Numbered from the stretch's first letter, positions 37-60,525 are shown. The stretch: DNA of 64,000 bases from an uncultured Lentisphaerales bacterium (GCA_943788985.1 CALSSJ010000026.1:32001-96000); one strand, 5' to 3'. Translations and numbers: made by a program. Notes: generated from the letters alone by a model not told the origin.

Positions 37-1671
37 ATGAAAAAGCTGGCTTGTCTCGTTCTTTATCTTCTCGTCGCGGCCGGACTGGCGCTGGTCGGCG
101 TAGGTGCTGGTTGGCACATGGCTCTGAACAAGGGCCCAAGCGCGGGCGCGCACGACAGCCACGGCCATGACGAAGCAAGCGGTGGAGACGGTGGCCACGA
201 CGACCTGTCAGAACAGGCGCTGGCCAACCTCGGCGTGCAATCGGAGAAGCTATCACCGACCACCTTTGTGCTGGCGACGCCGGTTCCTGCTGAGATTCGC
301 GAGACGCCCTCGAGTAGCCGTCGAGTCGTCGCCCCGGTAGGTGGACGCGTCCTCACGGTCGCCACCGAGCTGGGCGAACTGGTCGACCAAGGTTCCGCAT
401 TGGTCACCATTCTACGAGACCCGTTCCCCCGCCCACGGCTTGAGATCACCTTAGAAGTCGTGACACCGGAAACCGAGGATTACCACGAGACCAAGGCCGA
501 GTTACGGACCGCATTGAAGTCCGCGGAAATCCTCACTCAGGAGCTGACCCGTGTCGGCGGACTGGTGGGCGCAGAGGGGTTTCCACTTGTTCCACGCCAG
601 GACCTGATCAAGCTTCGCTATGAGAATGCCATTGTGCTGCAAACGATCGAGAACTTGCGCAGCGAACTCCGCATGCACGGGCTAGACGCTGCCGATGTGA
701 AGCGCGTGGAAGCCGGCGAGGATGTCCCGCTGAACCCTACGGTCTGGCGGGCGCTGTTCGTGCGCAACGGGCTCTGGAATGCCAGCGCTGATGCGCTGCT
801 GGCGGCGTTGCCGGAGCAGCTGCGCGACGAGCCATGGCATGTCGCGGTCTGCGGCGAACTCGCCGTGGAGCAACTCGCCACGCCCGAGTTGATTGCCTGG
901 CTCAAGGAGACCCCCGCCGTCGGAGAGCACTTTGCCAGCGTTGCGGGACTGCTGCAGAGCGGGGCAACCATTGGCCAGCTCCGTAACCTTTACCTGCGCA
1001 GCGCCTTCGAAGAGACGGTGACCGTGCAGAGCCCCCACGGTGCGCCTGACTGGGACGTACACTCACTCGAGGTGCGCCCTGGCGATATCGTAAGCGCAGG
1101 TGACACGCTGTTGACCGTGGTGAATCCGCGGGAGTTGCACTTGGTCGCGCAGCCCTCAGGCAGCGAGACAGCAGCAATCCTCGAGGCGTTGCGGGGTTCG
1201 CAAACCGCCACCGCTGAGTCGTTGGTGCATGGCGCGGCACCGGATCTAGACAAGCTCGTGTTGCAGGCAGTCAGGGTCGATGAGGCGCATCAGCCAGTGG
1301 CATACTTTGTCGTGCAGAACAAGCAGCTGCAGGTCACAGAGCGGGATGGGCGCAGGTTTCGCAGCTGGGACCTGCGGCCCGGGCAACGCTATCTGCTCCA
1401 GACCCCACGTGAAGTTTGGGAAAATGTGTACGTGGTTCCGGTCGGCGGCATCTTCGCCGACGGCGCGGACTTACAGGTGTATGCCAGGCACGGCAGCCAT
1501 TTCCACGCAACTCCGGTCACGATTCGTCACCGGAATCACGCCGTAGCGGTCCTGAGCGCGGATTCTCTGCGACCGGGCACTGAGGTCGTCACCGCCGGCG
1601 CGTTTGCGCTTAAGCTAGCGATGAACGCTGGCAGCTCCGGAGCAGATCCGCACGCCGGACATAATCACTGA
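37..1671 (+). CDS. RND efflux periplasmic adaptor (CzcB/CusB-like membrane fusion protein)
   Basis: N-terminal TM, His-rich linker (HDSHGHDE) and tail (HAGHNH), split lipoyl-like motifs (VVAPVGGRV...GELV; VRPGDIVSAGDTL); directly upstream of an RND permease. ATG at 37 chosen over GTG at 28. Confidence 0.85.
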   Translation: MKKLACLVLYLLVAAGLALVGVGAGWHMALNKGPSAGAHDSHGHDEASGGDGGHDDLSEQALANLGVQSEKLSPTTFVLATPVPAEIRETPSSSRRVVAPVGGRVLTVATELGELVDQGSALVTILRDPFPRPRLEITLEVVTPETEDYHETKAELRTALKSAEILTQELTRVGGLVGAEGFPLVPRQDLIKLRYENAIVLQTIENLRSELRMHGLDAADVKRVEAGEDVPLNPTVWRALFVRNGLWNASADALLAALPEQLRDEPWHVAVCGELAVEQLATPELIAWLKETPAVGEHFASVAGLLQSGATIGQLRNLYLRSAFEETVTVQSPHGAPDWDVHSLEVRPGDIVSAGDTLLTVVNPRELHLVAQPSGSETAAILEALRGSQTATAESLVHGAAPDLDKLVLQAVRVDEAHQPVAYFVVQNKQLQVTERDGRRFRSWDLRPGQRYLLQTPREVWENVYVVPVGGIFADGADLQVYARHGSHFHATPVTIRHRNHAVAVLSADSLRPGTEVVTAGAFALKLAMNAGSSGADPHAGHNH

Positions 1672-4600
1672 TGAACAAGCTGATCGAGTTTTCGATTCAG
1701 AATCGTCTGTTTGTCGTCGCCCTCGCGCTCGTGGTGGCGGTCACCGGCGGATACCAAGCCACGCAAATGCCGATCGACGTGTTGCCGGATCTGAACCGCC
1801 CGTCGGTCGTGGTGATGACCGAAGCACACGCGATGGTGCCGCAGGATGTGGAGCAGCTGGTTACTTTGCCCCTGGAGCGCGCATTGAACGGCGCCAGCGG
1901 CGTAACGCGCGTACGCTCCCAATCCGGCCTCGGCCTCTCAGTGGTCACCGCAGAGTTTGCCTGGGGCACGGATGTGTTCCGTAACCGCCAGATCGTGCAA
2001 GAAAAGTTGCAGCTGGCGCAGGGGTTTCTGCCAGAGGGCATTCAGCCGCAGATGGCCCCGGTAAGTTCGATCATGGGCCAAATACAGATGATCGGCCTGT
2101 ACAGCGAGACGGACGCACACTCGCTGGAGCAGATTCGCAGCCTGGTGGACAATGATCTGCGCTACCGCCTGATGGCGGTCCCGGGCGTGGCAACGGTGCT
2201 GGTGATCGGCGGCGCGCCCCAGCAGCTACAGGTGGAAATGGACGCATTGCGCATGCGGGTCTATGGCGTCACGGTCGAGGACGTCGCAACGGCAATCCGC
2301 ACCAGCAATCGTAGCGCTGGTGGCGGCTTTCTAGAGATCGGCGCAGCCGCGCCAGTGGTCACGGTAAACGGACTTCTCGGCAATGCCGATGACCTAGCCG
2401 ATGCAGTGGTCAAGCCAGATCCGGAGCGCCCGGTGAGAGTGCGCGATGTGGGCACGGTCTCGTTCGCACCGGCAGCTATCCGAACCGGCCAGGCCGGGGT
2501 GAATGGCAAGCCTGGTTGCGTGGTCATCATCAACAAGCAACCCGGGCATGATACGGTAACGCTCAGCGAATCGATTCACGAAGTATTGGATGACTTCGCG
2601 GTAAGCGTCCCGGATGGCATCACCGTGGTGCCCGACCTCTTCCAGCAGGCGGACTTCATCCACCGGGCGATCGACAACGTCATGGAGGCGGCGCGAGATG
2701 GCGCAATCATGGTCGTGATCGTGCTCTTTATGTTTCTGCTGAACTTTCGCACGACCCTGATCACGCTCACCGCGATTCCGCTATCCGTGGCGATGACAGC
2801 GCTGATTTTTGCCGCCTTTGGCCTGAGCATCAACACCATGACACTCGGTGGGCTCGCGGTGGCCATCGGCGCCCTGGTAGACGACGCCATTGTGGACGTA
2901 GAGAATGTGTTTCGGCGGTTGAAACAGAATGCCGCGGGCAAGCGCCGGCCGCCGCTTTCGGTGGTCTGGGCCGCGTCTTGCGAAGTTCGCAAACCCATCA
3001 TTGTCGGTACCGCGCTGGTGGTGGTGGTCTACCTTCCGTTGTTCTTTCTGAGCGGCTTGGAAGGCCGGTTGTTCGCGCCGATCGGCCTTGCGTACATCAC
3101 CAGTGTTGTCGCCTCGTTGGCAGTGTCGCTGACGGTCACGCCAGCACTGTGCGCCTACTTACTGCCGAACTATGTCGAGAAAAAGGAACGCCGAGACGGG
3201 CTATTGGTACGAGGACTGCGAGTCGTGGCCGACCGGACGATCCGGCTGAGCGTTCGCCATTCGCAGCACGTCCTGGCGACTCTCACGGGACTGGTGGTGA
3301 TCGGCATTGCCGTGCTGGCGATGCGCGGTACCCAATTTCTTCCGGAGTTCAACGAGGGGGTCGCGCAGATCAACCTGATGCTGCCGCCTGAGACGGGGCT
3401 GTCGACGTCGGATGCGTTCGGCCAGCGCAAGGAGCAGGTTTTGCTGGAGGTAGAGGGCGTGCGCTCGGTGGCACGACGAACGGGCCGCGCCCAGGGCGAT
3501 GAACATGCAATGGGCGCAAACGCGACCGAGACAATCATCACCTTCGCTCCCGACAGCGGTCGATCCCGTGAAGAGATGCTGGCGGATATTCGAGACAAGC
3601 TGGGAAAGGCATTTCCCGGCGTGCCGATCGGGGTAGACCAGCCGCTGCAGCACTTGCTCAGCCACATGCTCAGCGGAGTCAAGGCGCAGGTCGCGGTCAA
3701 AATCTACGGTCCAGACCTGGATGAGTTGCGCCGGTTGGCCGCGCAGGCTGAGCAGGAGATTCGAGCAGTCCCAGGCGTAGAGGATCTGTACGTAGAGCAG
3801 CAGGTCTTGGTGCCGAGCATTTCCGTGCGCCCGAACCGCGAACTCTTGGCGCGGCATGGGCTGACGGTGGACGCAATCGCCGAGACAATTGAGCTGGCAA
3901 TGGGCGGCGAAGCGGTCTCACGCATGCTCGACGGCCAGTACAGCTATCCGATCGTGGTGAGGCTGGCGGCGCGCTATCGCAGCGACCTTGAGGCATTGCG
4001 TCAGCTGGTGGTGCACACGCCCGAGGGGCGCGCACTGCCGCTGGCAGATGTGGCGGAGATCGAGGAAACAAAAACCCCCAGCAACATCAACCGCGAGAAC
4101 GTTTCACGGCGGATCGTGGTCCAGCACAATGTGGCCGGCCGGGCGCTTGGGGAGGTGGTGGCTGATGTACAAAAGGCACTAGGCTCCGTGCGCGACAGCA
4201 TCTCCGAGCTCGAAGGCTATCGTATCGAACTGAGCGGGCAGTTCGAGGCCCAACAAGCGGCCACCAAGCGCATCTTGCTGCTAAGCATCGTCAGCCTCGC
4301 AACGATGGTTCTGATCCTCTATCTACACTTCGGCTCGCTGAATTTGAGCTTACAGGTTTTAGCTGGGATTCCGATGGCATTCATCGGCGCGGTCGCCTAT
4401 ATCATGGCCAGCAATCAGGCGCTTTCGGTGGCTACGCTGGTCGGTTTGATCTCGCTGGGCGGTATTGCCACCAGAAATGCGATTCTTTTGCTGGACCACT
4501 ACCTGCACATGATGCGTGAGGAAGGCGTGCCCTTTGGCATAGACTTGATCGCCCGTGCGGGCCAGGAGCGGATGGTGCCAGTGGTCATGACCGCGTTGAC

Positions 4601-10435: not shown

Positions 10436-10476
10436 ATTCCCAATGCCGGGAATTGCAGAGTTCGCAAATCCTCTGC
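10436..10476. terminator. Hairpins between convergent sigma and prfA genes
   Basis: ATTCCC/GGGAAT and GCAGAG/CTCTGC inverted repeats; includes a 14/15 copy of the iterated palindrome at 10453-10467. Confidence 0.45.
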
Positions 10477-11580: not shown

Positions 11581-11658
11581 AAAACTCGGGAGATGGGCTA
11601 GAAAAAAGATTCTTTACGATGTTCGCAAACAGCGAACGGAGTGCCGGAGAATGCCAAG

Positions 11659-14600
11659 CTAGAACTCGACCGGGGCCAGAATCAGACGAAGCCCGATGTT
11701 GTCAAAAGTGTCGTCCGTGGGAGCCCAGCCCTGTACCTCGACAGCCAGTGTCTTCTCAGTGACTTCGGTCCACGCCCCGCCGCAGACCGCGCGCTTGGTA
11801 CCCTTCTTGGTTGTGGTCCACTCCCAGACATTTCCGGCAATGCCGTAGAGTCCCCACTCGTTGGTGCCACTTTCTTCGACAGTGCATGTTGCTGGATAGG
11901 GATCGTCGTAACCATCTAGACGCCAAGCAGTGGGGAAGACTTCTTGGTTGCCAAAATTCCCGTATTTAGGAGGCCAGGAATCACCCCACGGGTACTTGCG
12001 GTCCTGCCCGCACTTGGCAAACTTCATCCATTCCTCGACTTTGGGCAACCGGAACTCGTAGTTGTTTGGCAGCTCGAAATGACGCCCGGCGGTACTCTTG
12101 ATCCACTCCGCAAAGGCGATGGCGTCGAGGTAGGTGATGTACACGACCGGCTGACGGTCGCCATCCAACGAGATTCCTTCGGCCTTCTTGCTGTTGTGCG
12201 TAGCACGGAATTGCCTGAAATCCGCGTTGGTGACTTCATACTTGGCGACCCATACGCGCATGGAGTCAATCCAAACGAAGTCCATGTTGACACCGGGGAC
12301 CGTGAAGTTGTGCCCCTTGCGGGCGGAGAATCTGTTGCGAGCTCGCAAGAGGATGGCATCTGCCTTCTTGAGTGCCTGCGTGTATTCGTCCTTGGACTCA
12401 AGAAAATCCTCTCGCGTCATAGCGTCCTGAGCAAGGCGCATGACGACGTCCAGACGCACGATATCTTCACTCAACTCGGGTGCGGCTCCTTCAAAGGCGC
12501 GAAGCTTCTGCCGTGCCTTCTCCAGCTTATCTCGTAAGGTTGCTGACTCACGGCGGCGCACTTCGTGCAATCTCTGCTCGACATCCTCAAGCATTTCGAG
12601 TGCTTCTTCGTACGCGACTGTGGACTTGTTGTATTCGCCAGAGTCTAGGAGATCGCGCGCTTTTGCACTGATCTTGTCCGGGCCAGGCAGCATGCTCTGG
12701 GCGTCAGCCTGATTGGCCAGAGCCATTCGCAGTTCGAGAAACCGTTTCTTGGCGATGTCCGCAACATCCTTTAACTTTCCCTTTTCCCGCTCCTGAACCT
12801 GCAAGGCTTCCTTTTCGACCTTCTCAAGCTCAATCAGCCCCTTCTGATAGGCTTCGGCCGCAACCTGATAGTCCGTCTGCGAGAGATAGACTGCGGCTCT
12901 GTTCGCGTAGTCATCTGCCACGTGCAGGCGGCTGCGAGTATGGGAAAGTCGGGCAACCACAGAGCGGCGGCCATTGTAATGCTCTTGCTGCTTGAGCGCT
13001 TCCCGGTGCAGCGTCTCCCGCTGCTCCTGACGCTCGCGCAGGAGTTGGGCTTCAACCTCGCGGACGCCGTTGATCGCCTCGACATAAAGACTGCGCGAAC
13101 GATTGAAATCTCCATTCAGGAAGGCACCGACAGCCTGCTGAGCGAGGTCCTCAGTGGGGGCAAGAAGCTCGACGGCACGCGGGCTGGCGGAAAGCGGCAG
13201 GCGCAGCTTGTTATACTCTTGCTTGGCGTCTTCGGCGAACCGTCGCTGGCGGGCCGTTTCTTCCTGCGCATCCTTGGCCAGATCCAGCGCTTTCTGCCGC
13301 GCCCGGTCGAGTTCGGCTAGGGCGCTGTCGAGTCCCTCGACCGCTGCTTCAAGGTCGCCTGCGTCCTTGCGGCGTATGGCTGCGTCCCGTACCGCATCTG
13401 CGGCTTCGAGCAGACTTGCCGCGTAGGCATCCTGCGCCAGCGTGATCCGCTCGGTGGTGTAGCGATCCTCTCGGTTGACGACGCGACGCTTCAGCTCCTC
13501 CGCCTCTTGGACGCGCTGCTCGGCAACACTCTGCTTGATCCCACGCAGCTGATCGAGTCCAGCGCTATATGCCTGGATGGCCTGCTCGTACTGTTCATTA
13601 TTAAACGCTTCGCGCGCCGTTCGATCGATCGATTCGACGTTAGTCAGCAACCCGCGGCCGAGCCGGTCCTCGGCTAATTCTACCTGCAAGTCGCTGAACT
13701 GCTTACGAAGTCCCTCGGCATCGGTCGCCAAGTTTTCTTGTCGGCGCTGCGCCAGCGTCACTTGATCATCGATGGCCTTTAACTGAACGAGGAGTGCGCG
13801 ATATGCTTCCAGCGCAGCCACGTATTTCCCTTCATTAAGGGACTCGCGCGCGGCCTCGGCTCCTTCTTTGATCGGTGGGAGTTGGGGCTGGGCGATGCTC
13901 TCACTGATTAGCTTGGTATAGAGGTTTTCATAGCGGTCACGTAGATCGATGGCCTGATCTCGATCGGATGTGTCAGGCGGCAATGGCGGCGCGTCTGGCA
14001 CTCGATTCACATTGACAGGAGGCGGCGGTTTGGGCATCAATTTATGCACGCCAAAGGCGGCGATCGCCAGCAAAAACACTGCGGCGATAGCGAGCAGCTT
14101 GCCTGGTTTTGGGCCCACTCCAGCACCAGTCCCCAAGCCTCGAATGAATTCTTCACAACCGGGGAAACGATCGTCCGGATCACGCGAAAGTGCCTTCAGT
14201 AGGGCGGCATTCTCCCTTCGTGAGAGTCCCTCAATGGGTTCGACGTCTCCAGTCTCAGTCACGAGTTGATAAAACTCGCGGGCATGTGATTCAACCACAG
14301 TCTTGGTGTCATCCCCACAATCATCTTCTGAAGAACCAAGCGGAGCCTGGACCCAGAAAGGCACACGCTTCGATAGCATCTCGTAGACGATCGCAGCAAA
14401 TGCGTACTGATCAGACGCCATGGTGGGCGCACTCCGCTCCCACATCTCCGGCGCCATATATTCCCGGGTTGCGAGCGGCAAGAGATGGTGTTCATCTTGC
14501 GCGGCTTCGGGCGCATCGTCGCCGGGATACATGATCCCATAGTCCAGCAATTTGGCGGTGTTACTCCCCTCACAGAGGAAGATGGACTCCGGTTTGATAT

Positions 14601-25857: not shown

Positions 25858-25897
25858 GAAGCCGGTGTTGCGAACTTCGCAACACCGGGCTTCTTTC
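25858..25897 (+). terminator. Intrinsic terminator-like hairpin centred on the iterated palindrome
   Basis: CCGGTGTTGCGAA-C-TTCGCAACACCGG perfect 13-bp arms followed by GCTTCTTT. Confidence 0.7.
25868..25882. repeat. Iterated 15-bp palindrome, exact copy (intergenic)
   Basis: TTGCGAACTTCGCAA. Confidence 0.85.
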
Positions 25898-41131: not shown

Positions 41132-41547
41132 TGTTTCGCACGCACTCCAGCCGCCAGCTGCCAGAGACGGACTCAGATGTAAACATGACGCCCCTCATCG
41201 ACATGGTGTTCATTCTCCTGATCTTCTTCCTAGTCACGGCGACCTTTGAGCCCGATCCGGGCATTCAGCTCGAGCGAGCGACAGCCACGCACACCAACTC
41301 GGTGCCAAGCGAAAGCATGCGAATTGCGATCTCCGCAAATAATCAGGCGTATATTGGTGGCCGTGCGGTTGATCGCCCGCAACTTGAACGCGCAGTGCGC
41401 ACCTTCGTCGGAAACAGCCCGCAGGGATCAGTCGCAATTGTGCCAGACCGGCGTGCCGACGCCGGAACGCTGGTGGAACTTATGGATTTAGTCAGGGAGG
41501 CTGGGATAGACAATGTTGCTGTCGTCACTCAAGCGCCCGCGCACTGA
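41131..41547 (+). CDS. exbD: Biopolymer transport protein ExbD
   Basis: NMTPLIDMVFILLIFFLVT. Confidence 0.92.
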   Translation: MFRTHSSRQLPETDSDVNMTPLIDMVFILLIFFLVTATFEPDPGIQLERATATHTNSVPSESMRIAISANNQAYIGGRAVDRPQLERAVRTFVGNSPQGSVAIVPDRRADAGTLVELMDLVREAGIDNVAVVTQAPAH

Positions 41548-42307: not shown

Positions 42308-43353
42308 GAGCACTTGCCGCCGCGCTGCTTTGCCTCTGTTGTGCCGCCGTACCGCCGACCGAGCAGCAGGCGCAGCGCCTGCAGTTGGCGCATGCTCAGC
42401 TGGAAAGCGGAAATGCAGAGTCCGCAAGACGCGAGTTGTCCGCACTGCTTGCCGAGGAACCAGAGCTGGACAGCGCGCGGTTGCTGCTGGGGTTTACCTA
42501 CTATGCTCTGGGCGACAAGACAGCTGCGGAGTCCGCATTTCGCCAGGTACTCCTGGATTCTCTGGAGGCGAAGGCGCTGGAAGGGCTGGTCGCGGTTGCC
42601 CCCAATTCCTCCGGCGCGCGGTTGCTGTTGCTACTCCATGGCGCCACGCCAGAGACGCTGGCACGCTGCCTGGATGTGCTTCCCAGCCAAGAGTTGCTTC
42701 CACATTTGCAGGATCTGGTCGCTCAGAACCCCAACGCGGGCAATCTCTTCCTGCTCGCAGCTGCGTTGCATCGCAGTGGAGATTACGAGCACGCCGTGCG
42801 GGCCTACGAACGCGCCTGGTATCTCGGCTCAGACGAGGTCAAGCCCGCGACGCTGGCCGGGCTGCACCAGCACCTAGGCCAGGTCGAAGATGCGCTACTC
42901 TGGTTGGATCGGGCGAGCGATAGCGACACCCCGGAGCGACGCATCATGCGCGCCGAATTGCTGGAAACGACCGGCGAATTGGCCGAGGCGCAGACCATCG
43001 CGCGCGTGCTGATCGAAGATGGGGCGCACACCGAAAGAGCCCTAAACGTCCTTATCCGGACGTTGCCAGCCGACGCCCCGAACAGCGAAATCGCCCCCTA
43101 CGCAAAGCATGCGACTGCTGCCCAAATGGTCATTCTAGGGCACCGTGCCTGGCACCACGACGAGGCAGCCGAGGCCGTGAGCTACTTTGCGAACTCCACA
43201 AACCTGCGGCCCTTGGACACAGCGTCCCAAGTGGTTTTGGTACAGGCGCTCCGGGCTGTCGACCGGGACCTCGAGGCACGAAGTGCGCTGGTGACACTGG
43301 TCGCAGACCATGGCCTGCTGCCGCAAATCAGCGCGCTTCTTGCTCAGAATTGA
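42304..43353 (+). CDS. Secreted TPR-repeat protein
   Basis: Signal peptide, several TPR-like helix pairs; last gene of the TonB operon. Confidence 0.8.
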   Translation: MRALAAALLCLCCAAVPPTEQQAQRLQLAHAQLESGNAESARRELSALLAEEPELDSARLLLGFTYYALGDKTAAESAFRQVLLDSLEAKALEGLVAVAPNSSGARLLLLLHGATPETLARCLDVLPSQELLPHLQDLVAQNPNAGNLFLLAAALHRSGDYEHAVRAYERAWYLGSDEVKPATLAGLHQHLGQVEDALLWLDRASDSDTPERRIMRAELLETTGELAEAQTIARVLIEDGAHTERALNVLIRTLPADAPNSEIAPYAKHATAAQMVILGHRAWHHDEAAEAVSYFANSTNLRPLDTASQVVLVQALRAVDRDLEARSALVTLVADHGLLPQISALLAQN

Positions 43354-44653
43354 GCGGTTTCTGCCGCAGGCCGCGGCTGACTCGCCACAGCCCAAGGCCA
43401 GCATAGAGCGATAGAATCGGCTCGACCGGCACCCGAAAGCGCGGATGCGCGTCCGGCCCTAATATGCCGACACAAACGAGGCCAGAGATCACCAACAAAC
43501 CGTGGACCAGCCATTGGTCGCGCTGGGCTAGTGCCGTCCACAGTCCGAGTCCGGCAAATGCGAACTTCGCAATCACCAGCAGCACGAGCAGGCTGAGAGG
43601 TGCCAGCAGCCAGAGGTTGCCGCCGAAGTAGTGACCAACGCCCGCGCTAAAGCCGTGGGTGTTGATCACCGCCATGGTCCCATTTCCCCCCACATCTGCG
43701 CCGAGCATGCGCGCGAGTTCGCCCTCAATCGGCAGCAAGGCCATGGGCGACTTCTGCAGGTGAATCAGTGCGTACTCAAACGGCGAAGAGAAGATGATAC
43801 GCTTCCACTCGCGTGCAGCAAACTCGCCTTGAGCGCCCTGCCCTTCCTGCTTCAGCAGCGCGGTGGTGTGGATCGTCTGTTGCTCGGCGAAGCTGCGGCC
43901 ATTCTGCCGGGCGGCGAGCGCCGTGGCATGATAGCGATAGAAGGTGACGTCTCCGTTGCAGCCAAACCCGGAGAATCCATGCGCTTGGTTGCGCATCACC
44001 CACGGGGCAGCACAAGCCACCAGGCCGAGAAACAGGACTAGCGCAAGCTGCCAGCGTCGCCAGAGCAGGCACCAGCCGACCAGACAGGCCACGAGCGGCA
44101 GCGTGATCGCCCGCAGGTAGAGCATGAGCCCAAGGCACGGCAGCAGGAGCAGCAATTGTGCGTACGGTACGCCGTCGTCTGCGGAAAGGCGACGAGCCAC
44201 TCGAATGGCGAGACACAGAAGCAGTAAGAAGACACAGGTAAACAGTGTCTCACTGAGCAACTTACAAGAATAGACAATGGCCGTGGTGGCAATGACTTGC
44301 CAGCCCATGGCCCAGCGCGGCGAGCACTGCGGCGTGAGTTGCCTGGCGAGCGCCAGCACCAGCAAAATGTTTAGGCAATCCACAAGCACTTGAAGCCAGG
44401 GCATCACCGTACTTGCCCGCCCGCCTGTGAGTACGTTGACCGCAGCTAGGCAAACCGGGTAGCCAGGGGGCCGAAACAGCTCGGCCTGCCCGGCCCGACT
44501 ATAGCCATCGCCTTGGCGAAGTGCGTCTGCCAGCTCGAGATAGTCGACGGAGTCGGGAGCGAGGGTCGCCGATTCCGGCACCAGCACTAGCAGGCCAGCT
44601 CGCAACGCAAACGCGACAAGCAGCAAAATGACGATGAAACGAGGGTCCTTCAC
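43328..44653 (-). CDS. Polytopic GT-C / ArnT-like glycosyltransferase
   Basis: PDS.DY..LA, FRPPGYP, LLSETLF, PWVMRN, PRFRVP; many TMs. Confidence 0.75.
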   Translation of the reverse strand: MKDPRFIVILLLVAFALRAGLLVLVPESATLAPDSVDYLELADALRQGDGYSRAGQAELFRPPGYPVCLAAVNVLTGGRASTVMPWLQVLVDCLNILLVLALARQLTPQCSPRWAMGWQVIATTAIVYSCKLLSETLFTCVFLLLLCLAIRVARRLSADDGVPYAQLLLLLPCLGLMLYLRAITLPLVACLVGWCLLWRRWQLALVLFLGLVACAAPWVMRNQAHGFSGFGCNGDVTFYRYHATALAARQNGRSFAEQQTIHTTALLKQEGQGAQGEFAAREWKRIIFSSPFEYALIHLQKSPMALLPIEGELARMLGADVGGNGTMAVINTHGFSAGVGHYFGGNLWLLAPLSLLVLLVIAKFAFAGLGLWTALAQRDQWLVHGLLVISGLVCVGILGPDAHPRFRVPVEPILSLYAGLGLWRVSRGLRQKPLNSEQEAR

Positions 44654-46353
44654 GGCTCCATCTTCAGGAGTTCGACAAAATCAATCAGGATGCCAGGCTC
44701 AAGACTCTGGAGGATCAACTCCGCGGGTGGATCGGTGAGAGCCAACTGCCCAGCGCTGGTCAGGATGTGCCATTGTTCGTAGCGATCGCTGGCAAGAAGA
44801 ACTTGCCTGCCCTGCAGCCGAAATGCCAACGAATTTGCACAGCCGTGCTGCCAGCGCACCCGTGCGCGCACACGATATCGCCCTGGCTCGAGGGACTCGA
44901 CTGACAAGCGAGCAAGCCCAGCACGCTTGTCAGCATCGGCAGGCAACGCGAGCGCAGCTTTGGCAGAGGCCTCGGGAATCCGGGCGACCGTGAAGCCGCC
45001 ATCTACAGTGAAGGACTCCGCCTCGAATACCGGAATCTTGGGGGGCGTTTCCGCGAGATCGAAGGAGACGACGGGAAGCCGCAGCCCATTCTTTGGCGCT
45101 GGTTCGAAGAGCTCGCAAAGCCGCTGATTAAGCCCACTGACGTGATTGACCGGGTCCGGCGCGCGATTAACCTTTAGCATCAGTGCGAAGGCAACTGCGG
45201 CAGCGGCAGCGGGAAAGAGGACAAATGCGAGGTTCGCATGTGTGCCACGGCGATGCTCCGGCTCATTGAGTCCAAGGACGGCACCGAACCAGATGCCGAC
45301 GCCGCGCCCGAGCGTAGTGGCAAAGACGGATGCAGCCGCAAGCCCGATACCAGCGCACCACCAAATTCTCTCGGTCTCATCTTTTGCGCGGCTGACGCAG
45401 ACAAATACCAGACAGAACAGCAGCAGCGCGGCGGCTGGCATACCAACCTCGACCCAAACCACAGCGTAGGTATTGCTGGTGTCGCGCGGAATCGTGAGAT
45501 TGTCGGGATGGGCCACGAGCTGCGTCCGCGTGTGCAAGGCGTTCACCGCTCGGTTGTACTCCCCGAGCCCAGCGCCTGCCGGATAAAGCAGCGGTGCCTG
45601 ATACGCGCTCTGCAGGTCGATAAAGTTCCGGCGCGTGAAGCCATCCGCATAGCTGGGCGATAGTTCCAGCCACGGGCTTCCTGGGGCCGGACGCAACAGC
45701 GCGCCAGCAATCATCGCCACAAGCAGGACGCCACCCAACCATTTGCGGAGTTCGCAACTCGCGGCCGCCAGGACCAGAACTACGCTGATGACGAGCAGAT
45801 GCCAGCCATGGTCCACGGTCATACCCGCCAGCAGCCCAGTGGCAACGGCGCCGATCCCGGCCAGGGCAGCCGGGCAGCGCGAGAGGGTCAGAACCAGCGC
45901 CGGCAGCGCCATCGCCAGAATCGCGGCACGTCGGGCGTCGCTGAGCCCAGTCAGCGGCGCATAAATGTGCCCAAGACCAACGATCAATAGCCCCGCTGCG
46001 ATGACTGCTACAGGCCGAACGAGGGCCGCGCGCTGCTTCGCGGAGCGCCGCGCAAACAGAAACCAAGCTACCGCCAGCGCCTCCGCCACTTGGGCCAGCT
46101 CTTTGGCCGCGCTGGCAGCTTCATGACGGCTGAGCCCCAGGATGCCGAGCGCGAAGGCGCAGGCAAGGGCAAGATGTGCAGTCCCAGGCCGTGGGCAAGT
46201 CTTTGTGCGAAGCAAAAACAGGTCGATTGCGAACAAGGCGGCAAGGCAGATCGTGGCCACTGGAATCGAAACCGGGCCGAGCGAAACTGTCTGTTGCAGG
46301 CAGGCCGCCACCAAGACCGCGAATGGGATCAGCGTACAGTTCATTTGGACCAC
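44650..46353 (-). CDS. O-antigen-ligase (Wzy_C)-like membrane protein with C-terminal carbohydrate-binding-like domain
   Basis: About 12 TMs; P.GAGLGEY...NTY..VWVEVG loop; C-terminal FEAE...GRYRVRARV beta-sandwich. Confidence 0.62.
   Translation of the reverse strand: MVQMNCTLIPFAVLVAACLQQTVSLGPVSIPVATICLAALFAIDLFLLRTKTCPRPGTAHLALACAFALGILGLSRHEAASAAKELAQVAEALAVAWFLFARRSAKQRAALVRPVAVIAAGLLIVGLGHIYAPLTGLSDARRAAILAMALPALVLTLSRCPAALAGIGAVATGLLAGMTVDHGWHLLVISVVLVLAAASCELRKWLGGVLLVAMIAGALLRPAPGSPWLELSPSYADGFTRRNFIDLQSAYQAPLLYPAGAGLGEYNRAVNALHTRTQLVAHPDNLTIPRDTSNTYAVVWVEVGMPAAALLLFCLVFVCVSRAKDETERIWWCAGIGLAAASVFATTLGRGVGIWFGAVLGLNEPEHRRGTHANLAFVLFPAAAAAVAFALMLKVNRAPDPVNHVSGLNQRLCELFEPAPKNGLRLPVVSFDLAETPPKIPVFEAESFTVDGGFTVARIPEASAKAALALPADADKRAGLARLSVESLEPGRYRVRARVRWQHGCANSLAFRLQGRQVLLASDRYEQWHILTSAGQLALTDPPAELILQSLEPGILIDFVELLKMEP
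45743..45757. repeat. Iterated 15-bp palindrome, exact copy (in Wzy_C-like gene)
   Basis: TTGCGGAGTTCGCAA. Confidence 0.85.
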
Positions 46354-49265
46354 ACTGGCGTCCCGACTCGGTAGCCCTGTCCGGCAGTCTGGCCGACCAT
46401 CAGGTAGTCGGCATTGCTGGTGTTTCCGATAGTCAGCGCCTCTACAATGAGCCGAGCCGGTGGGTTGGGCAGTCGCATCACAGCCTCGCGTAGATTCACG
46501 GAGAAGGCGGCAGTGGGGTCAAACTCGCCCAAGCTTCGTTCCGACATGCTGGCACTCGTGAACAAACCGCGCCGAAACTGCTCACCGGTCTCGTCTCTTG
46601 GCGTCAGCAGCGACGCGGTCTCGGTAATCGGGGCACGCAGCTGGCAGACATAGGACTGCCCGGAGATCTGCAGAAAGAGATTGACCGAGATCCCGTGATC
46701 CACTTCCACCGGAAGCGTGAGCAGGGGCGTATCGGCTAGATCAATCAGAGTCTCTGGCGTGTACCGAACTGCGATCTTGCCAGCACCAGAATTCGTGGTT
46801 ACCGCAGTGATGAACGGTGGGGCGGCTGAGCCCAGAGTGACGCTATCGCGCAGCAGTGGCTTCCAGAGCTCCGATTCGGTCTGCTGATTGGAGATATAGG
46901 CGACGTGCGGATGCCACTGGATGTCCTCCGCTGTGGACGTCATGCGGGCCAGCACAAAGCCGTTGCGCACAGTCCAATACATAGTATGCCCACCAGTCAG
47001 CGGGTTGCGATCGATGTAGTTGAATAGAGACTTGCCATCTCGGGTCACATTCACCTGTGAGCCATGCCTGCTGACGTGAAACTGCCACCACCGCCAATGA
47101 ATGTCCTGTTGCTTGCTTGGAATCCTTCCAGCAGTTGATTCGGCTACGACCACGCCGTGCCTCAATAACAGGGCCCGTGTATTCTGGCGCCCGCCGAAAA
47201 CGACAGAATAGCCAGAAAGCGGGTTGCGACCGTCAGTGCAAAAGGAAAAATTTAGGTCCCGGCGGGAGTACCAACCGTCGTTTCGATGGAAAATCGCAAA
47301 CTTTCTGCTTTTGTCGACCACTGCGTCGTAGACAAAGTCCGCGTCGCCAGCATCCCAAGGCATGGCTGGGCGTAGGGTCATGAAGTACTCATGCTCCTGG
47401 TCGCCATGAAACTGTGCCTTGCTGACAATGAATGGGGCACCGGTCCCGCCACAGGCCATGAAATTCCAGCGGTCTAAGCAGGCCCAGCGGGTGTCCATGC
47501 GAAAGGCCCCCTCAAACCAGCTCCAATCAGTCGCAGCCCGCTCGAACAGCTCTGTCACAAGAGTGGCGGCGGTGATCCGGTGATGCGCCGCGTTGGGGAA
47601 AGCCGGCGGCAAAGGCTCGCGCGCATGGGAAATGCGGACCGAAACCGGCCCGACCAGCTGGCGGAGAAGTGTGCGCCAGCCCGAGTCTGTTTGCACTTGC
47701 ACAGTTCGCCCCTCGCGGCGACGAAATGCCAGCCTGCCACGAGACTGGTCCACCGTCCAGCCGGGCAATGACTCAGCAGGGGTCCAGCCGGTGTCATCAA
47801 GCGTAAAGATTAGGAGCAGCGCGTGCGGCTTCAAAACCGACCCCTGCCGCCGATGCTGGGCAAACTCGAAACGATAGCGGCCGTGCGGGATCGGACCGGC
47901 AAACGCGTCATAGGCAAGGACCTTGTAGTCAAAGTCCCCGAATACGGGGAGCCGATTGTGAATCTGTTGGAGCTTACGCCCAGCACCATCGCGTGCGCTG
48001 TGGCGCAAGAAAGCATCGTTTCCCTGTGTCCAATTCTTGAACGTCTTGCTATCATTCTGGGTCGTTTTTTTGGCCGAAAACTGACGGCTCCGCTCGAACA
48101 GCGCGCCCGGGGCGCGCGCTGGTGAGCCAGGACTGCTCTCGGCACGGACATCATCGAGCTCGATCAGCCCTTCTCCGGCCACAAGCAATGGCGGGCCCAG
48201 AATAAGGCGTGGGGCTCTGGCGTGCGTGACGGCGACGCCATCCAGTTCTCCTGTGAGCGCGTAGCCATGGCGGATACTCAGGCCAATTCTCGCCCAGTTA
48301 GTTAACGGCGGCCGCAGTTCGGTGTAATGGCTGAGAAACTGCCATGCGGCCTGCGGGTCTTCGCGCCAGGCGAGGCCAAACTCACGGCTCTCGCTGAACC
48401 AGCCGAACACAGCCTGCACCCCAGCAGGATCACCGACTCCGACCAGCAGATTTCCCTCGGGAAAACTTGTGGTGTCAATCACGGAAGTTGTCCGCGGCAC
48501 GCCAAAATAGAAGCGGGCCTCGCAGTACCCGTGCGGCATCGGTGTCTCGCCATAAGCCAACACCCCCGGTTGCGAGCTCCGCACAGAAAACGGATTGACC
48601 GCCCGCTCGAACGTGGAATCTCGCGCAGCCGAGCCTACCGCCAGCCCTTTTCCGTATTGGCGGAACTGCCAATCTCCGCCGAACGCCTGCCACGAAAAAT
48701 CCAACAGCTCCTCGCGCATGAAGCTGTCTCGCATACTCTGGCCGGAGATCGCCACAGACGTGACGGAAGGCCGCTCTGCTGGATTCCCAGCCAGCCAAAA
48801 CAGGTCCCACTTCGCACGCCGCTCGTGAAAGACCGGGGCCTGGTCCGCAAAGATCGTGATCTCGCCGTCTGCCAGTAGCAACTGCAGCTGCTCCACAACC
48901 TGCTCATGCAGCACGTGGCCATGCAGGGCGCCGTTGTCATCCGCTAGAAAATACCGCGGCCCGCGACGCTCGCGGAGATAAACCGGAGTGCGGATCAGAC
49001 TCGGTCGCGCGATCGTCACCATGCGGCCGACGGCTCCCTCCGGATGATCGAGGGGGGGCTCGAGGAGAACTCGCCCGTCCTTGTGCCAGTTCCGTTCACG
49101 TACATCCCGCTCCGTCGGCGGCTGCAATAAGCTCGCCGCTGAAGCGGTCAGGCAAACGAAGGTGAATAATGCGGCACGTAGGGTCACGAGGGTCTCACCG
49201 AGTGGTAAGTGGGGCAAAATGGTACCGATAACGCCGCGCGCCGGTCCCGTCAGTCCTGCAGACAT
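46341..49265 (-). CDS. Large secreted Trp/beta-rich hypothetical protein
   Basis: 974-aa ORF; signal-like ALFTFVCLTASA (true start probably ~aa 27); lectin/LamG-like segments. Confidence 0.7.
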   Translation of the reverse strand: MSAGLTGPARGVIGTILPHLPLGETLVTLRAALFTFVCLTASAASLLQPPTERDVRERNWHKDGRVLLEPPLDHPEGAVGRMVTIARPSLIRTPVYLRERRGPRYFLADDNGALHGHVLHEQVVEQLQLLLADGEITIFADQAPVFHERRAKWDLFWLAGNPAERPSVTSVAISGQSMRDSFMREELLDFSWQAFGGDWQFRQYGKGLAVGSAARDSTFERAVNPFSVRSSQPGVLAYGETPMPHGYCEARFYFGVPRTTSVIDTTSFPEGNLLVGVGDPAGVQAVFGWFSESREFGLAWREDPQAAWQFLSHYTELRPPLTNWARIGLSIRHGYALTGELDGVAVTHARAPRLILGPPLLVAGEGLIELDDVRAESSPGSPARAPGALFERSRQFSAKKTTQNDSKTFKNWTQGNDAFLRHSARDGAGRKLQQIHNRLPVFGDFDYKVLAYDAFAGPIPHGRYRFEFAQHRRQGSVLKPHALLLIFTLDDTGWTPAESLPGWTVDQSRGRLAFRRREGRTVQVQTDSGWRTLLRQLVGPVSVRISHAREPLPPAFPNAAHHRITAATLVTELFERAATDWSWFEGAFRMDTRWACLDRWNFMACGGTGAPFIVSKAQFHGDQEHEYFMTLRPAMPWDAGDADFVYDAVVDKSRKFAIFHRNDGWYSRRDLNFSFCTDGRNPLSGYSVVFGGRQNTRALLLRHGVVVAESTAGRIPSKQQDIHWRWWQFHVSRHGSQVNVTRDGKSLFNYIDRNPLTGGHTMYWTVRNGFVLARMTSTAEDIQWHPHVAYISNQQTESELWKPLLRDSVTLGSAAPPFITAVTTNSGAGKIAVRYTPETLIDLADTPLLTLPVEVDHGISVNLFLQISGQSYVCQLRAPITETASLLTPRDETGEQFRRGLFTSASMSERSLGEFDPTAAFSVNLREAVMRLPNPPARLIVEALTIGNTSNADYLMVGQTAGQGYRVGTPVWSK

Positions 49266-49335: not shown

Positions 49336-49363
49336 TTGCGCCGTCCGCAACGGATCCTATAGT
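49336..49363 (+). promoter_or_regulatory. Putative sigma70 promoter of the rplY operon
   Basis: TTGCGC-N16-TATAGT followed by a GC-rich discriminator (ACGCGC). Confidence 0.65.
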
Positions 49364-53195: not shown

Positions 53196-56061
53196 ATGGA
53201 AGTAAAATTCAATTGCACCTTCTGCCGCCGCAAGATTTCTGCGGGCCGGGGAGTATGCTGGAATGTTGGTAGACTGCCCGTCATGCGGCTGCAAACTTGA
53301 CGTCCCCTCTCCCGCCTTCAATACTGGTGATCGGCTAGGCAAGTATATCATCGACCAGTGCCTCGGCGCCGGGGCGATGGGTGAGGTGTATCTTGCTCAA
53401 GAAGACGGCGGCTTTGCCGAGGTAGCCCTGAAAGTGATCTCCTTGAAAGGAGTGGACCAGGAAGACCTGGAGCGTTTCCAAAAGGAAGTAAAGCTCCAAG
53501 CCAGCATTCACCATCCCAATATTGTCCCGGCCTACAAAGCTGGCGAAGTGGATGGCTACCACTTTCTGGCAATGGCCTACATCGAAGGGGAATCTCTAGC
53601 AGACCGGCAATCTCGCGTCGGGCGTATGGACGAGCAGGAGGTTCTGGAGATCGGCCAGACGATCTCCAAAGCCCTTCACTACGCTTGGGAAGAGGTAAAC
53701 CTTCTGCACCGGGACATCAAGCCAGCGAACATCATGCTGGATAAGAATGGCCATGTCATGCTCGCGGACCTGGGAATCGCGAAGAGCAGCAACCTGGACC
53801 CTGGCCTTACTACGGTCGGTTTCGCTTTGGGAACCCCAGACTACATGAGCCCCGAGCAGGCACGTGTCGAGACTGTGGACTGCCGAACGGACATTTATGC
53901 GTTGGGAGCGACCCTGTTTCATTTGCTCGCCGGTGAGCCCCCGCACGATGCCAACTCGGTCGCAGAGGTCCTGGCAAACAAGTTCAATCTGCCAGCACCG
54001 GATGTCCGCGAGTTTAACCCCGCAATCAGTGCAAATACTGCCCGTCTGTTACAGCGAATGCTTTCCCGTAGCCGTGAGAAACGAGCAGAAGATTGGCTGG
54101 CGCAAGAAGGCGAGTTTAAGCGCGTTCTTGTCGGGAAGCCCCCGGAGGCTCCCGCCCCGGTTCCCGTTGCAATTAAAACAGTGGATAAGCCAGCTGAGGA
54201 GCCAGCTCAGGTGACCTTTCACCGGTCCCCTAGGAAATTTCGGCGGGCGGACCGGAAGGTTGGGATGGCCAAGGGCGGCTGCGCGGGAACCGGCGTCGGA
54301 ATCGTTGTCTTCCTGGCTATTCTGGCCTTGATTGCGGGCGCATTTGTCATGAACCGGTCGACGCCTGCCGTCGTTCCGCAGGACACTGTGGTAGAAGCTC
54401 CCCCTCCCCTCCCGCCCCCAGAGCCCGTTCTGCTTCCCGCTGAGACAGCGCCCACGGTCCCTGAAGAGCCTGCGGCCCTGGCAGACGCACAGCGCAGTCT
54501 GGCTTCTCAGTTGATCGAGAGCGGTGATTTCAAAGTAGCGGATCGCCTGATCAAGGAGCTAGCAGCTAAGGGGAATACCGTCGCCTCGCTGACCAAGCAG
54601 TATGATGCCGCCGTGCGGCTCGCGCAGGAACGAGCCTTGAAGAGGCGTCTGGCTGGAAAACTTGGCGGTGTTGCTGATGCAATCGTGGGGGGGGAGATGC
54701 GAAAGGCTGAAGCCGCTGCAGAAGCCCTCGTGGCCGAGTCTGCGGAGTTCGCAGCCGTCCCGGAGTTCAGCGCGGCAAGACCGCGCCTGGAGTTGTTGAC
54801 AGACGACGCGATTAGCAAGGTCCTACTCCACCAGCTCTCCGGCACCGTAGGCCAAACCCTGATGCTGCAGACCAAAGATGGCCCAGAGGTCATCCATGTA
54901 ACCGCCGTGGACCCGAGAGGCATTCGAGGGCGCAAGCGTACCCCCACCAGCTACACCTTCTTGCGGATTGCGCTGAGCGCACTGACGGATGAGGAAGTGG
55001 TAGAACGCGTTCGCCCCAGCAAGCCTCATGGTCGCTATCTCGCAGCCGTGGCGATGGCCGCCAGAAGGATGCCCCACGCACAAGCGGCAATGGCCAGTTT
55101 CGACGATCCCCTGTCTGCACTGATCGCAACTCGCTTGCCCAAGAGCGGAGACTCAGAGGCCACACGATCGAAGAAGCAGCCTGCCCCAGAGAACGGAGCC
55201 AAAGCTGAGTTTTCACGCCTGTTGCATGGCCTAGGACTGCCCCCCAAAAGTGGGGCAGCAGAATGGTTCAAGCTGCTTTTCGCAAAACGTGACGACGCCG
55301 ACTACCTGGCCACCGTGCGGGCTGCGACACAGCTTTATCTGAGGCAGTACGGAGCCAAGCTGACGGCGCAGCAGCGGACCTTGGTGAATTTCATGGCGAC
55401 GATCGAGACCGAGTTCTGGCCCCCATCGCGGCCTGCGACCGCGTTGCGAACTCCGCAATTGGAGACGCACCGCCTGTGGGCACTGGAGAACGTCGAGACC
55501 GGTGCCAAGGGAACCTGGCGCTTCGAAAACGGCCGCGCGCATTTCAGGGAGAGCGAGGCCCTCCGGAGTTTTTACAAAGCCTGCAAAGCTCAGTCCGAAT
55601 TCACGGTTGAGGTGATGTTTCGGACGTCTTCAATTTTCCAGACCGGCCCGGCACGAATTGTCAGCGCGTCGAACGGCCCGCATCACCGCAACTTCAGCCT
55701 GGTACAGGACGGACGCTCTCTGCAGATCAGGGTGCGTACCAGCGAGAATGGCCGGAACGGAGACAAAATTCAACCGAAGCTATTTCTGCTGCGTAACAAC
55801 GCGCTGACCCATGTGATTGTCACCTACCAGGACGGGGAGTTGTGCGCCTATGAGAACGGTGCCTTGAAATCCACAGTGCGCACAATTAGGGGGAGCCTGA
55901 GCGATTGGCAAGACTTCGAGTTTCTTCTGGGTAACGAGGTGGACGTGGACCGCCCATGGGAAGGCGCGATCTACCTGCACGCCGTTTATCCCCGCGCCCT
56001 GAATGAAGGCGAGGCCCAGCTCCATTTCACCACCGCGAAACAGATCATTAACGGGCGATAG
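53196..56061 (+). CDS. Membrane Ser/Thr kinase with N-terminal Zn ribbon and C-terminal LamG-like domain (indel near 53250)
   Basis: MEVKFNCTFC (from 53196) plus VDCPSCG; GAGAMG, ALK, HRDIKPAN, DLG, GTPDYMSPEQ; TM; FTVEV..GPARIV..HVIVTY..YENG..LLGNE..W.G.I. Confidence 0.9.
55444..55458. repeat. Iterated 15-bp palindrome, exact copy (in kinase gene)
   Basis: TTGCGAACTCCGCAA. Confidence 0.85.
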
Positions 56062-58839: not shown

Positions 58840-58841
58840 TC

Positions 58842-59640: not shown

Positions 59641-60525
59641 ATGAGCATCGCGGTCATCCGCTTCAGTGCGCTTGGCGACATCGCCAGCGCCCTCCCCTAC
59701 ATCCGCGCCCTCCGCGAGGGCCCGACCCTCATTACCAGCGGCATGGGTGCTGGCCTGCTCCAGGACGAATTCCCCGACATTCACGTACTCAAGAGCAAGC
59801 GCATCCGCGACGTGTTCAGCCTCGTTTGCGAACTCCGCAAACAGCGCTTCGACCATTTGATCGACCTGCAGAACAACGATCGCTCGCGGCTAATCCGCAG
59901 CTTGACCAGCGCGCGAGCCAAGATCTCCAGCAAGGGCATGCCAGGTGGGGTGCCCAATCTGGATAACTTCCACCGCATCATGATGCCCAGCGGCTTGCTC
60001 CAGGAACCGGACACCAGCTTTACTCCGAAGCCATGCGACTACATCGTCTTGAATGTCGCCTCCAGCTCCAAATGGCACGCAAAGCGTCTGCCAGTGGCAA
60101 AGTGGCAGCAGTTCGCAGCCTTGCTGCACGACCGCTACGGGCTGCCGTTTAAGCTCACTGGTGGGGCTGACGAGCGCGACTATGTTGCGGAGGTCGCAGC
60201 CCAGCTGCCGGGCGAGTGCGAGAATGTCGCGGGCCAGACCAGTTTAGTCGAGCTGAAGCTACTGCTGCGCAACGCCTTCTTGGTGGTGTCTACCGACTCC
60301 GCAGCCATGCAGCTAGCAGCCGCAGAAAAGACACCCACAATCGGCCTGTTCGGCTGCACGAACTGGGTCCGTGCCCGCCCGTTCGGCCCCTGGAGCACAG
60401 TGCTATACGACAAGGCCGTGTATCCCGACGATCAGCCCCCGCCGGTTAGCATCGAAACGCCCGGTGCCTACTACGACGGCATCGACCTGGCGGACGGCTT
60501 GACCGCCTTGGCCAAGTTTCTCTGA
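59641..60525 (+). CDS. Glycosyltransferase family 9 (heptosyltransferase-like)
   Basis: IRFSALGD, IDLQ, AKR.P, GQTSL, VSTDSA.MQLAAA...TIGLFG.T. Confidence 0.9.
   Translation: MSIAVIRFSALGDIASALPYIRALREGPTLITSGMGAGLLQDEFPDIHVLKSKRIRDVFSLVCELRKQRFDHLIDLQNNDRSRLIRSLTSARAKISSKGMPGGVPNLDNFHRIMMPSGLLQEPDTSFTPKPCDYIVLNVASSSKWHAKRLPVAKWQQFAALLHDRYGLPFKLTGGADERDYVAEVAAQLPGECENVAGQTSLVELKLLLRNAFLVVSTDSAAMQLAAAEKTPTIGLFGCTNWVRARPFGPWSTVLYDKAVYPDDQPPPVSIETPGAYYDGIDLADGLTALAKFL
59826..59840. repeat. Iterated 15-bp palindrome, exact copy (in GT9 gene)
   Basis: TTGCGAACTCCGCAA, with flanks extending the palindrome (GT...AC). Confidence 0.85.

Follow-up and report, generated by a model that had tools for sequence, protein, structure and literature searches.

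A 64,000-nucleotide stretch of DNA from an uncultured Lentisphaerales bacterium (GCA_943788985.1 CALSSJ010000026.1:32001-96000), which is called the window in the following, contains a 15-bp palindromic word, TTGCGRASTYCGCAA, at a frequency several thousand-fold above expectation. The word is imposed on the DNA itself, irrespective of the coding frame. Judged from the genome contigs of other bacteria, it is common to the Kiritimatiellota and the Lentisphaerota and is not private to the genome from which the window stems. The analysis is based on the window of 64 kb and on DNA from relatives with a total of about 270 kb.

The window was searched with the pattern TTGCGRASTYCGCAA, and eight exact copies were found, which start at positions 2978, 21400, 22354, 25868, 35776, 45743, 55444 and 59826. 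Seven further copies have one mismatch and 13 have two mismatches, resulting in 28 copies with up to two mismatches. All of them had been listed in an earlier reading of the same DNA that was made without database searches (the sequence-only reading), and every one was recovered at its position; an irregular copy at 40044 with one mismatch and an extra T is also visible in the sequence. Exact copies were absent from 100 of 100 dinucleotide-preserving shuffles of the window, and these shuffles contained on average 0.66 and at most 3 copies with up to two mismatches. Markov models of orders 1-4, which were trained on the window, yielded 0.0009-0.0022 expected exact sites and thus an excess of about 4,000- to 9,000-fold, in line with the roughly four orders of magnitude that had been estimated by hand (5e-4 expected sites). 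With up to one mismatch, the density is 15 sites per 64 kb, or one per 4.3 kb. The most over-represented 9- and 10-mers of the window under an order-3 Markov model turned out to be pieces of the motif, and the leading direct-repeat families reported by a repeat finder (D1-D3 and D5) are the motif as well.

A position table revealed a weak preference for T/A at the base flanking the 15-mer and no conservation beyond it, and the repeat finder detected no longer repeat unit around the motif in the window. This agrees with the earlier claim that the flanks are unrelated and that the word is neither a miniature inverted-repeat transposable element (MITE) nor an insertion sequence. The general form of the word is (t)TTGCGRA-N-TYCGCAA(a), which can also be written as (t)TTGCGRANTYCGCAA(a). 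The distances between the 28 copies do not differ from those of random placements (coefficient of variation, CV, 1.01; 64% of random placements were as low or lower), and an even or periodic spacing was not seen in the window. Isolated half-sites are unequally represented on the plus strand, with 14 TTGCGRA and 27 TYCGCAA after subtraction of the eight full sites. The mismatches of the degenerate copies lie mainly in the left half; this asymmetry is weak and about what the GC and AT skew of the window would give.

The relation of the copies to genes was analyzed with a greedy set of window open reading frames (ORFs) of at least 100 amino acids. Within these ORFs lie 21 of the 28 copies, on both gene strands and in all three frames, i.e., 13 in frame 1, four in frame 0, three in frame 2, and one that is ambiguous. 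The peptides encoded by the coding copies are A-x-x-A (13 copies), L-R-x-x-Q (four copies) and C-E-[LV]-R-K (three copies), and again one copy is ambiguous. The host genes are unrelated and encode an HlyD protein, a CzcA/AcrB efflux protein, two Ser/Thr kinases, a MoxR protein, a C92 peptidase, a sulfatase, ExbB/ExbD, a tetratricopeptide repeat (TPR) protein, a heptosyltransferase and three unnamed proteins. The sequence-only reading had claimed a signal at the DNA level, and it had named a shuffle that preserves amino acids and codons as a test that could refute the claim. To quantify the codon-based expectation, synonymous codons were permuted within each ORF in 300 shuffles, while the seven non-coding sites were left untouched and were then subtracted. 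The expectation for coding DNA was 0.05 exact copies, 0.5 copies with up to one mismatch and 2.7 copies with up to two mismatches, versus 6, 11 and 21 observed copies, respectively. The excess thus survived this shuffle, and the claim of a DNA-level signal was upheld. The seven non-coding copies are found in only 8.5% of the window, which represents an about three-fold enrichment, and four of them are situated directly past the 3′-end of a gene. Only three of the 28 copies are located upstream of a gene start (26630, 35776, 49336) and 21 are intragenic; the operator of a transcription factor regulon, which would be concentrated at promoters, was therefore rejected.

Comparisons with homologous proteins indicated how the coding copies originated. 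An alignment of the heptosyltransferase from the window with 21 of 120 listed homologues revealed that the site at 59826 aligns without a gap with RQLRQ, RQIRK, VELRR and similar peptides. A Cys is present in the respective column in three of the 22 heptosyltransferases, and the site is not retained in homologues with 65% identity or less. In the CzcA family, the position that is a Cys at the 2978 site is occupied by Ser in at least 96 of 120 homologues and by Cys in 15 of 120, and the latter include the two closest homologues, with 88-89% identity over the region. Because the homologues align without a gap and ordinary residues are replaced, the copies were made by point substitution and not by insertion of 15 bp. 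On the evidence of these alignments, the word arises where the protein is nearly pre-adapted, by the replacement of residues, including costly exchanges of Ser or Arg to Cys.

The geometry of the word is strict. Whenever the half-sites TTGCGRA and TYCGCAA occur within 20 bp of each other they are inverted with a gap of one base, both in the window (8 of 8 pairings) and in the relatives' loci described below (32 of 32), and neither direct nor everted pairs within 20 bp were present in the window or in these loci. The degenerate positions 6 and 10 vary independently, as they are complementary in 6 and non-complementary in 9 of the 15 copies with up to one mismatch. The mixed form GGAGTTC/GAACTCC makes up five of the eight exact copies. 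These features suggest that a conserved protein, dimeric and sequence-specific, recognizes the word in double-stranded DNA; each of its subunits would contact one 7-bp half-site at a fixed spacing. A dimeric DNA-binding protein had already been proposed in the sequence-only reading, and the geometry fits this proposal, as strict inverted pairing, the one-base gap and independent halves would be compatible with such a site.

To find out whether the word occurs elsewhere, genome contigs were scanned with the pattern TTGCGRAGTTCGCAA, which covers seven of the eight exact window copies. The scan returned at least 112 loci, which represent a sample and not a census, and the taxon labels are those of the submitters. 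According to the record titles, 25 loci belong to Lentisphaer- or Victivall- taxa, five to Kiritimatiell- taxa, four to Verrucomicrobi- taxa and three to the Planctomycetota, and 75 are scattered over other phyla. Copies beyond the seed were then counted in the flanks, allowing up to one mismatch and any central base, and compared with the expectation from an order-2 Markov simulation for each locus. Among the matches listed, 168 kb of Lentisphaerota DNA contained 29 further copies versus 0.17 expected, and 70 kb of Kiritimatiellota DNA contained 15 versus 0.10 expected. Together, the 30 loci of these two groups have 44 further copies versus 0.27 expected. The 30 kb with Verrucomicrobiota names had two further copies versus 0.07 expected, the 21 kb of Planctomycetota had none versus 0.03 expected, and the 921 kb of all other loci had six versus 1.2 expected. 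Four of these six copies belong to one 41-bp tandem repeat in locus L097, and the unrelated loci are near chance. The latter repeat (L097, 178-356, from a metagenome-assembled genome (MAG) of the Chitinophagaceae) consists of five tandem 41-bp units with the word in each, and it is a local repeat, distinct from the dispersed copies. Near-copies beside the seed were also observed in two loci with non-PVC titles, from 'Clostridium sp. CAG:448' (L070, 7035-10387) and in a Candidatus Nealsonbacteria MAG (L052, 2808-6254), and they may be due to chance or to mis-binned contigs.

Further copies were present in 11 of the 12 listed Lentisphaerota and Kiritimatiellota loci of at least 10 kb; therefore, the word is spread through the genomes and is not confined to one region. 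De novo k-mer analyses were performed with the scan sites masked. In three loci of one Kiritimatiellota MAG, pieces of the motif ranked fourth to fifth among the 8-mers (11 versus 1.8 expected), and in 14 pooled Lentisphaerota loci they were outside the top 10. It is the targeted flank count that carries the claim about the clade, because the pooled Lentisphaerota loci mix genomes of 34-70% GC.

The positive loci have GC contents from 34% to 70%, and the word varies with composition. AT-rich genomes have the consensus TTGCGAA-N-TTCGCAA, whose central base is free, and in GC-rich genomes position 6 is often G and the center is G or C. In the relatives' loci, 53 of 63 sites are located in ORFs, with 31, 18 and 4 in the three frames. 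A gene for a CobD-CobQ fusion protein in a Kiritimatiellota MAG of 38% GC (L036) contains eight copies in all three frames, which read ANFA, AKFA, CELRK, CEIRK and LRTSQ. In a Verrucomicrobiota-named MAG (L086), three exact copies were found in one ORF on a piece of 615 bp. Two loci from Victivallales (L028) and Victivallis (L102), which have 73% DNA identity, carry a copy at the same position of a surface-protein ORF, where it reads FAKFA. Because both loci had been retrieved through that copy, they show that a conserved site exists, and not how common such sites are. The lepA gene, which was compared between the window, L006 and L028, is a gene without motif copies. Short matches of 72-90 bp with 78-94% identity were observed between L028 and L079, L023 and L036, and L008 and L037, which stem from the same or different MAGs, and these matches may represent tRNA genes or small repeats.

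In the NCBI taxonomy the Kiritimatiellota and the Lentisphaerota are separate phyla within the Planctomycetes-Verrucomicrobia-Chlamydiae (PVC) group, and GTDB ranks them as classes of the Verrucomicrobiota. The sequence-only reading had assigned the window to a PVC lineage, and this is supported by a PVC-type gene content and by the closest named homologues of the heptosyltransferase. The latter stem, with 62% identity each, from a Kiritimatiellales MAG and a 'Verrucomicrobia bacterium' and, with 56% identity, from Kiritimatiella glycovorans. The named homologues of the chorismate synthase are scattered, belong to Desulfobacteraceae, Verrucomicrobiota and Rhodothermales, and are thus uninformative on the taxonomy. 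Judged from the heptosyltransferase and from the motif itself, the window probably belongs to the Kiritimatiellota.

Hyper-abundant words with a high information content are known in only a few groups, i.e., Neisseriaceae, Pasteurellaceae and cyanobacteria. HIP1 (highly iterated palindrome 1, GCGATCGC) of cyanobacteria resembles the word described here in that it is a palindrome, is hyper-abundant in coding and non-coding DNA, occurs in any frame and is shared on the scale of a phylum. In contrast, HIP1 has a length of 8 bp and the present word has 15 bp with three degenerate positions, so its information content is far higher and its density is lower; in addition, sequences and phyla are unrelated, and a link to methyltransferases is known for HIP1 only. 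The DNA uptake sequences (DUS) of the Neisseriaceae and the uptake signal sequences (USS) of the Pasteurellaceae also exhibit a hundreds- or thousands-fold excess, have intragenic copies in every frame, as far as the protein permits, have some copies past gene ends or in terminator-like hairpins, and occur clade-wide with composition-dependent, 'dialect'-like variants. However, they are asymmetric and are read by a pilin or an unknown receptor, while the present word is a strict palindrome with dimer-like geometry, and its clade is much deeper and comprises two NCBI phyla. To our knowledge, natural transformation has not been described for Kiritimatiellota or Lentisphaerota. The sites parS, NBS (bound by Noc), SBS (bound by SlmA) and matS (bound by MatP) are dimer-bound palindromes of 13-16 bp, which are often intragenic and in some cases widely conserved, but they number tens of sites per genome and often occupy one region, unlike the numerous dispersed copies found here. 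Repetitive extragenic palindromic sequences (REP) and bacterial interspersed mosaic elements (BIME) are likewise iterated palindromes; they are, however, extragenic, longer and mobilized by REP-associated tyrosine transposases (RAYT), whereas 21 of the 28 window copies are intragenic and have unconserved flanks.

The full-text literature, in a search that leaves subscription journals, REBASE and supplements outside, yielded no prior description of the word, and neither an uptake sequence nor an iterated palindrome was found to be described for these phyla. Six 15-mers of the motif gave no literature occurrence, and among the matches listed the literature about iterated palindromes was cyanobacterial or incidental only. 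Among the listed papers that mention palindromes together with Kiritimatiellota or Lentisphaerota, the topics are CRISPR or Mendelian randomization. None of the PVC taxon names that were searched for occurs in the HIP1 paper of Elhai 2015 (PMC4390886), and the K. glycovorans paper (PMC5148204) mentions neither competence nor pili nor palindromes. The operator of Aca2 has identical half-sites, which are everted and abutting according to the accessible part of the publication (PMC9410881), and is thus unrelated. The word may therefore be new, and length, strict palindromic dimer geometry and clade depth set it apart from other iterated genomic words.

Concerning the function, USS/DUS and HIP1 are characterized by a high information content that is combined with a high copy number, and the present word shares this combination. 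Therefore, the explanation ranked first is that the word could be a self-DNA tag similar to HIP1 or USS, which would be read by a conserved dimeric protein and be tied to DNA uptake and/or recombination. This explanation is favored only tentatively, and it is based on analogy. DNA bearing the word would be favored in uptake and/or recombination, as is the case for USS/DUS and as has been proposed for HIP1, and matching copies would consequently spread and be kept despite their cost to proteins. Some copies of DUS and USS are found just past the 3′-ends of genes and in terminator-like hairpins, and the four of seven non-coding copies past 3′-ends together with one copy in a terminator-like hairpin match this pattern. 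As is typical for uptake sequences, the word is in excess in genes and in spacers and is shared by a clade with variants; as is typical for iterated palindromes, the many-fold excess extends to all frames and is not explained by codon usage. Both statements apply to the window and the sampled loci. For HIP1, a methylation-dependent stimulation of natural transformation has been reported in the accessible part of a preprint (bioRxiv 2024.09.10.611283), and a correlation with a set of secretion or transformation genes, together with its proposal as a phylum-wide uptake signal, is stated in the available portion of another study (PMC13756078).

Several points weigh against a self-DNA tag. Genes for ComEC, ComEA, DprA and PilQ were not among the 30 + 32 window ORFs scanned, although 64 kb says little in this respect, and no literature was found that links uptake sequences to Lentisphaerota or Verrucomicrobiota. 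The known USS and DUS are not palindromic, and their density is roughly one per kb, compared with the lower value of one per 4.3 kb in the window. An apparent positional conservation, i.e., the site shared by L028 and L102 and the Cys in the two closest CzcA homologues, fits selection as well as drive. Lastly, the anatomy of the word could be accounted for equally well by a nucleoid protein. A more specific version of the uptake explanation, namely that the word is recognized by a new uptake/recombination system with a dimeric receptor that is ancestral to Kiritimatiellota and Lentisphaerota, is rather doubtful. If it were true, this would be the first palindromic uptake signal, and it would be found in phyla without known natural transformation; in that case, the conservation over GC contents of 34% to 70% would imply that the receptor and its word have stayed fixed together from a time before the two phyla diverged.

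The explanation ranked second, which is considered unlikely, is that an abundant protein for nucleoid organization, occlusion or segregation binds to the word, comparable to Noc/NBS, SlmA/SBS, MatP/matS or ParB/parS, and that the sites would be kept by selection for chromosome folding or segregation without any link to uptake. The palindrome, the strict spacing of the half-sites and the independence of the halves are what such a protein would be expected to recognize, the word is conserved across the whole clade, one orthologous pair (L028/L102) shares its position, and for HIP1 a role in chromosome structure has been argued from its periodic distribution (accessible part of PMC5861425). However, the copies in the window are spaced as if placed at random, and a site of 26 bits at such a copy number would exceed the need of such a protein. 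In the known systems the sites number in the tens and often lie in a single region, in contrast to the 15 sites per 64 kb and the occurrence in 11 of 12 relatives' loci observed here. A still less probable explanation, which was ranked third, is that the word is a by-product of methylation and biased repair, i.e., that an orphan methyltransferase sees part of the word and repair converts near-matches, without any binding function. The palindrome with two CpG steps would fit, as would the excess of near-matches, because the seven one-mismatch and 13 two-mismatch copies contribute to a total of 28 versus 0.66 expected. A bias of the Dcm/Vsr type, however, results in a modest excess of words of 4-6 bp and not in an at least 4,000-fold excess of a 15-mer, and the degenerate positions 6, 8 and 10 are unlike a typical type II methylation site. 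HIP1 contains the sites of two orphan methyltransferases (PMC4390886, PMC13756078, as far as these texts are accessible), but its conservation has been argued to reflect selection over neutral replenishment, together with periodic spacing, in the available text of PMC5861425.

Two further explanations are largely refuted. A role of a hairpin in RNA or DNA, as a terminator, an RNase site or a cruciform, is very improbable. The copy at 25868 is indeed part of an extended, strong hairpin (z = -5.0) that is located between convergent genes, and the enrichment in non-coding DNA would also fit. However, this was the only significant hairpin when the seven non-coding copies were folded, and the other six had z values from -1.8 to +1.4; with a stable hairpin at one of seven sites, the word does not behave like an intrinsic terminator. 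In addition, three quarters of the copies (21 of 28) are intragenic, positions 6 and 10 lack covariation, and in the mixed copies the sense strand is G-U-compatible in two cases and has A-C in three. Scans of the window gave no match to Rfam families and no tRNA genes. An even smaller probability is assigned to a miniature mobile element or its footprint, be it REP- or MITE-like or an insertion scar. An iterated palindrome is reminiscent of such elements, and an insertion of 15 bp would preserve the reading frame, but conservation ends with the 15-mer, the copies are mostly intragenic, unlike REP, and an insertion of five residues was absent at the two sites that were compared with homologues (heptosyltransferase and CzcA).

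The earlier cases of such words have each been informative on DNA uptake, recombination or chromosome structure, and a 15-bp palindrome in two poorly studied PVC phyla over a two-fold range of GC contents would add a new case of unusual depth. The word could be used as a bait for its candidate binding protein, and it is a concrete incentive for natural-transformation tests with cultured Kiritimatiella, Pontiella, Victivallis and Lentisphaera, which could make these groups accessible to genetics. Furthermore, it could be applied as a sequence signature for binning and for the detection of foreign DNA in these genomes, and the HIP1 question could be approached by comparison with it.

The exact copies of the window are distributed as follows. 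The copy at 2978..2992 lies in a CzcA/AcrB-family ORF (1671-4820, plus strand) in frame 2 and reads S-CEVRK, with Ser at the Cys position in most homologues. A ferredoxin-like ORF (21075-21449, plus strand) contains the copy at 21400..21414 (frame 1, AEFA), and the copy at 22354..22368 is situated in a Peptidase_C92 ORF (21460-22770, minus strand; frame 0, LRSPQ). The copy at 25868..25882 is intergenic with convergent genes on either side and forms the tip of a long, terminator-like hairpin (25858..25893; -35.6 kcal/mol for a 71-nt stretch, z = -5.0). At 35776..35790 a copy is located 17 bp upstream of an ORF (35807-36298) and also within a possible ORF (35433-35810). The remaining three are in an unnamed ORF (45743..45757 in 44650-46353, minus strand; frame 2, CELRK), in a Ser/Thr kinase ORF (55444..55458 in 53263-56061, plus strand; frame 0, LRTPQ) and in the heptosyltransferase ORF (59826..59840 in 59641-60525, plus strand; frame 2, V-CELRK).

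Among the copies with one mismatch, the one at 1189..1203 (TTGCGGGGTTCGCAA) is in an HlyD-family ORF (28-1671, plus strand; frame 0, LRGSQ), and the one at 10453..10467 lies between the convergent 3′-ends of a sigma-70 gene (ending at 10433) and a release-factor gene (ending at 10477). Further copies are in a sulfatase ORF (33768..33782 in 33331-34335, minus strand, frame 1), 11 bp after the stop codon of an ORF for an extracytoplasmic function (ECF) sigma factor (35540..35554; ORF 34951-35529), in an ExbD ORF (41324..41338 in 41131-41547, plus strand, frame 1), in a TPR ORF (43187..43201 in 42304-43353, plus strand, frame 1) and in an unnamed ORF (43558..43572 in 43328-44653, minus strand; frame 1, AKFA). 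The degenerate copy with one mismatch and an extra T occupies 40044..40059 in the ExbB-like ORF.

The copies with two mismatches are found in the spacer that separates the release-factor gene from the 3′-end of a Ser/Thr kinase gene at 11659 (11614..11628), in a kinase-FGE-sulfatase ORF (12750..12764 in 11659-16023, minus strand, frame 1), in a bpMoxR ORF (19570..19584 in 19203-20360, plus strand, frame 1), in the Peptidase_C92 ORF already mentioned (21543..21557, frame 1), in the intergenic region upstream of the ORF 26730-28028 (26630..26644), in the ORF 38391-38771 (38519..38533, minus strand, frame 1) and at the junction of the ORF 39306-39698 and the ExbB-like ORF 39671-40483 (39671..39685). 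Two more are in the TPR ORF (42413..42427 and 42524..42538, both in frame 1), and one is in the unnamed ORF 46341-49265 (48570..48584, minus strand, frame 0). The copy at 49336..49350 is between two divergent genes, i.e., the latter ORF and the gene for L25 (49434-50024, plus strand). The last two are in the Ser/Thr kinase ORF that also contains an exact copy (54740..54754, frame 1) and in the heptosyltransferase ORF (60185..60199; frame 1, AEVA).

Several other features of the window were observed. Between 5633 and 9084, an mcsB-like arginine kinase gene and a clpC/clpB-like gene are split over frames (6432-7112, 7058-7441, 7288-9084), and these frameshifts represent either pseudogenes or assembly indel errors. 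The lepA gene (56754-58623) has a frameshift near 57245, with the GTPase part at 56754-57248 and the remainder at 57250-58623. The frameshifts in lepA and clpC suggest assembly indels, and the extra T in the copy at 40044 could therefore be an assembly error. At 19203-21087, the gene for a bpMoxR ATPase adjoins that of the bpX2 protein of a 'MoxR-vWA-beta-propeller ternary system' (PF20030, PF19918). Three consecutive ORFs on the minus strand at 43328-49265 (441, 567 and 974 amino acids) have no match in Pfam or NCBIfam, and each of them contains a copy of the motif; they adjoin an ExbB-ExbD-TonB-TPR cluster. The housekeeping cluster at 49434-52254 (L25, peptidyl-tRNA hydrolase and L9) is free of the motif over about 3 kb, which is too short to infer an avoidance by highly expressed genes. 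In the spacer upstream of the sulfatase gene, an imperfect inverted repeat is present at 34427-34563, which has arms of 47 nt with 74% complementarity that are 43 nt apart.

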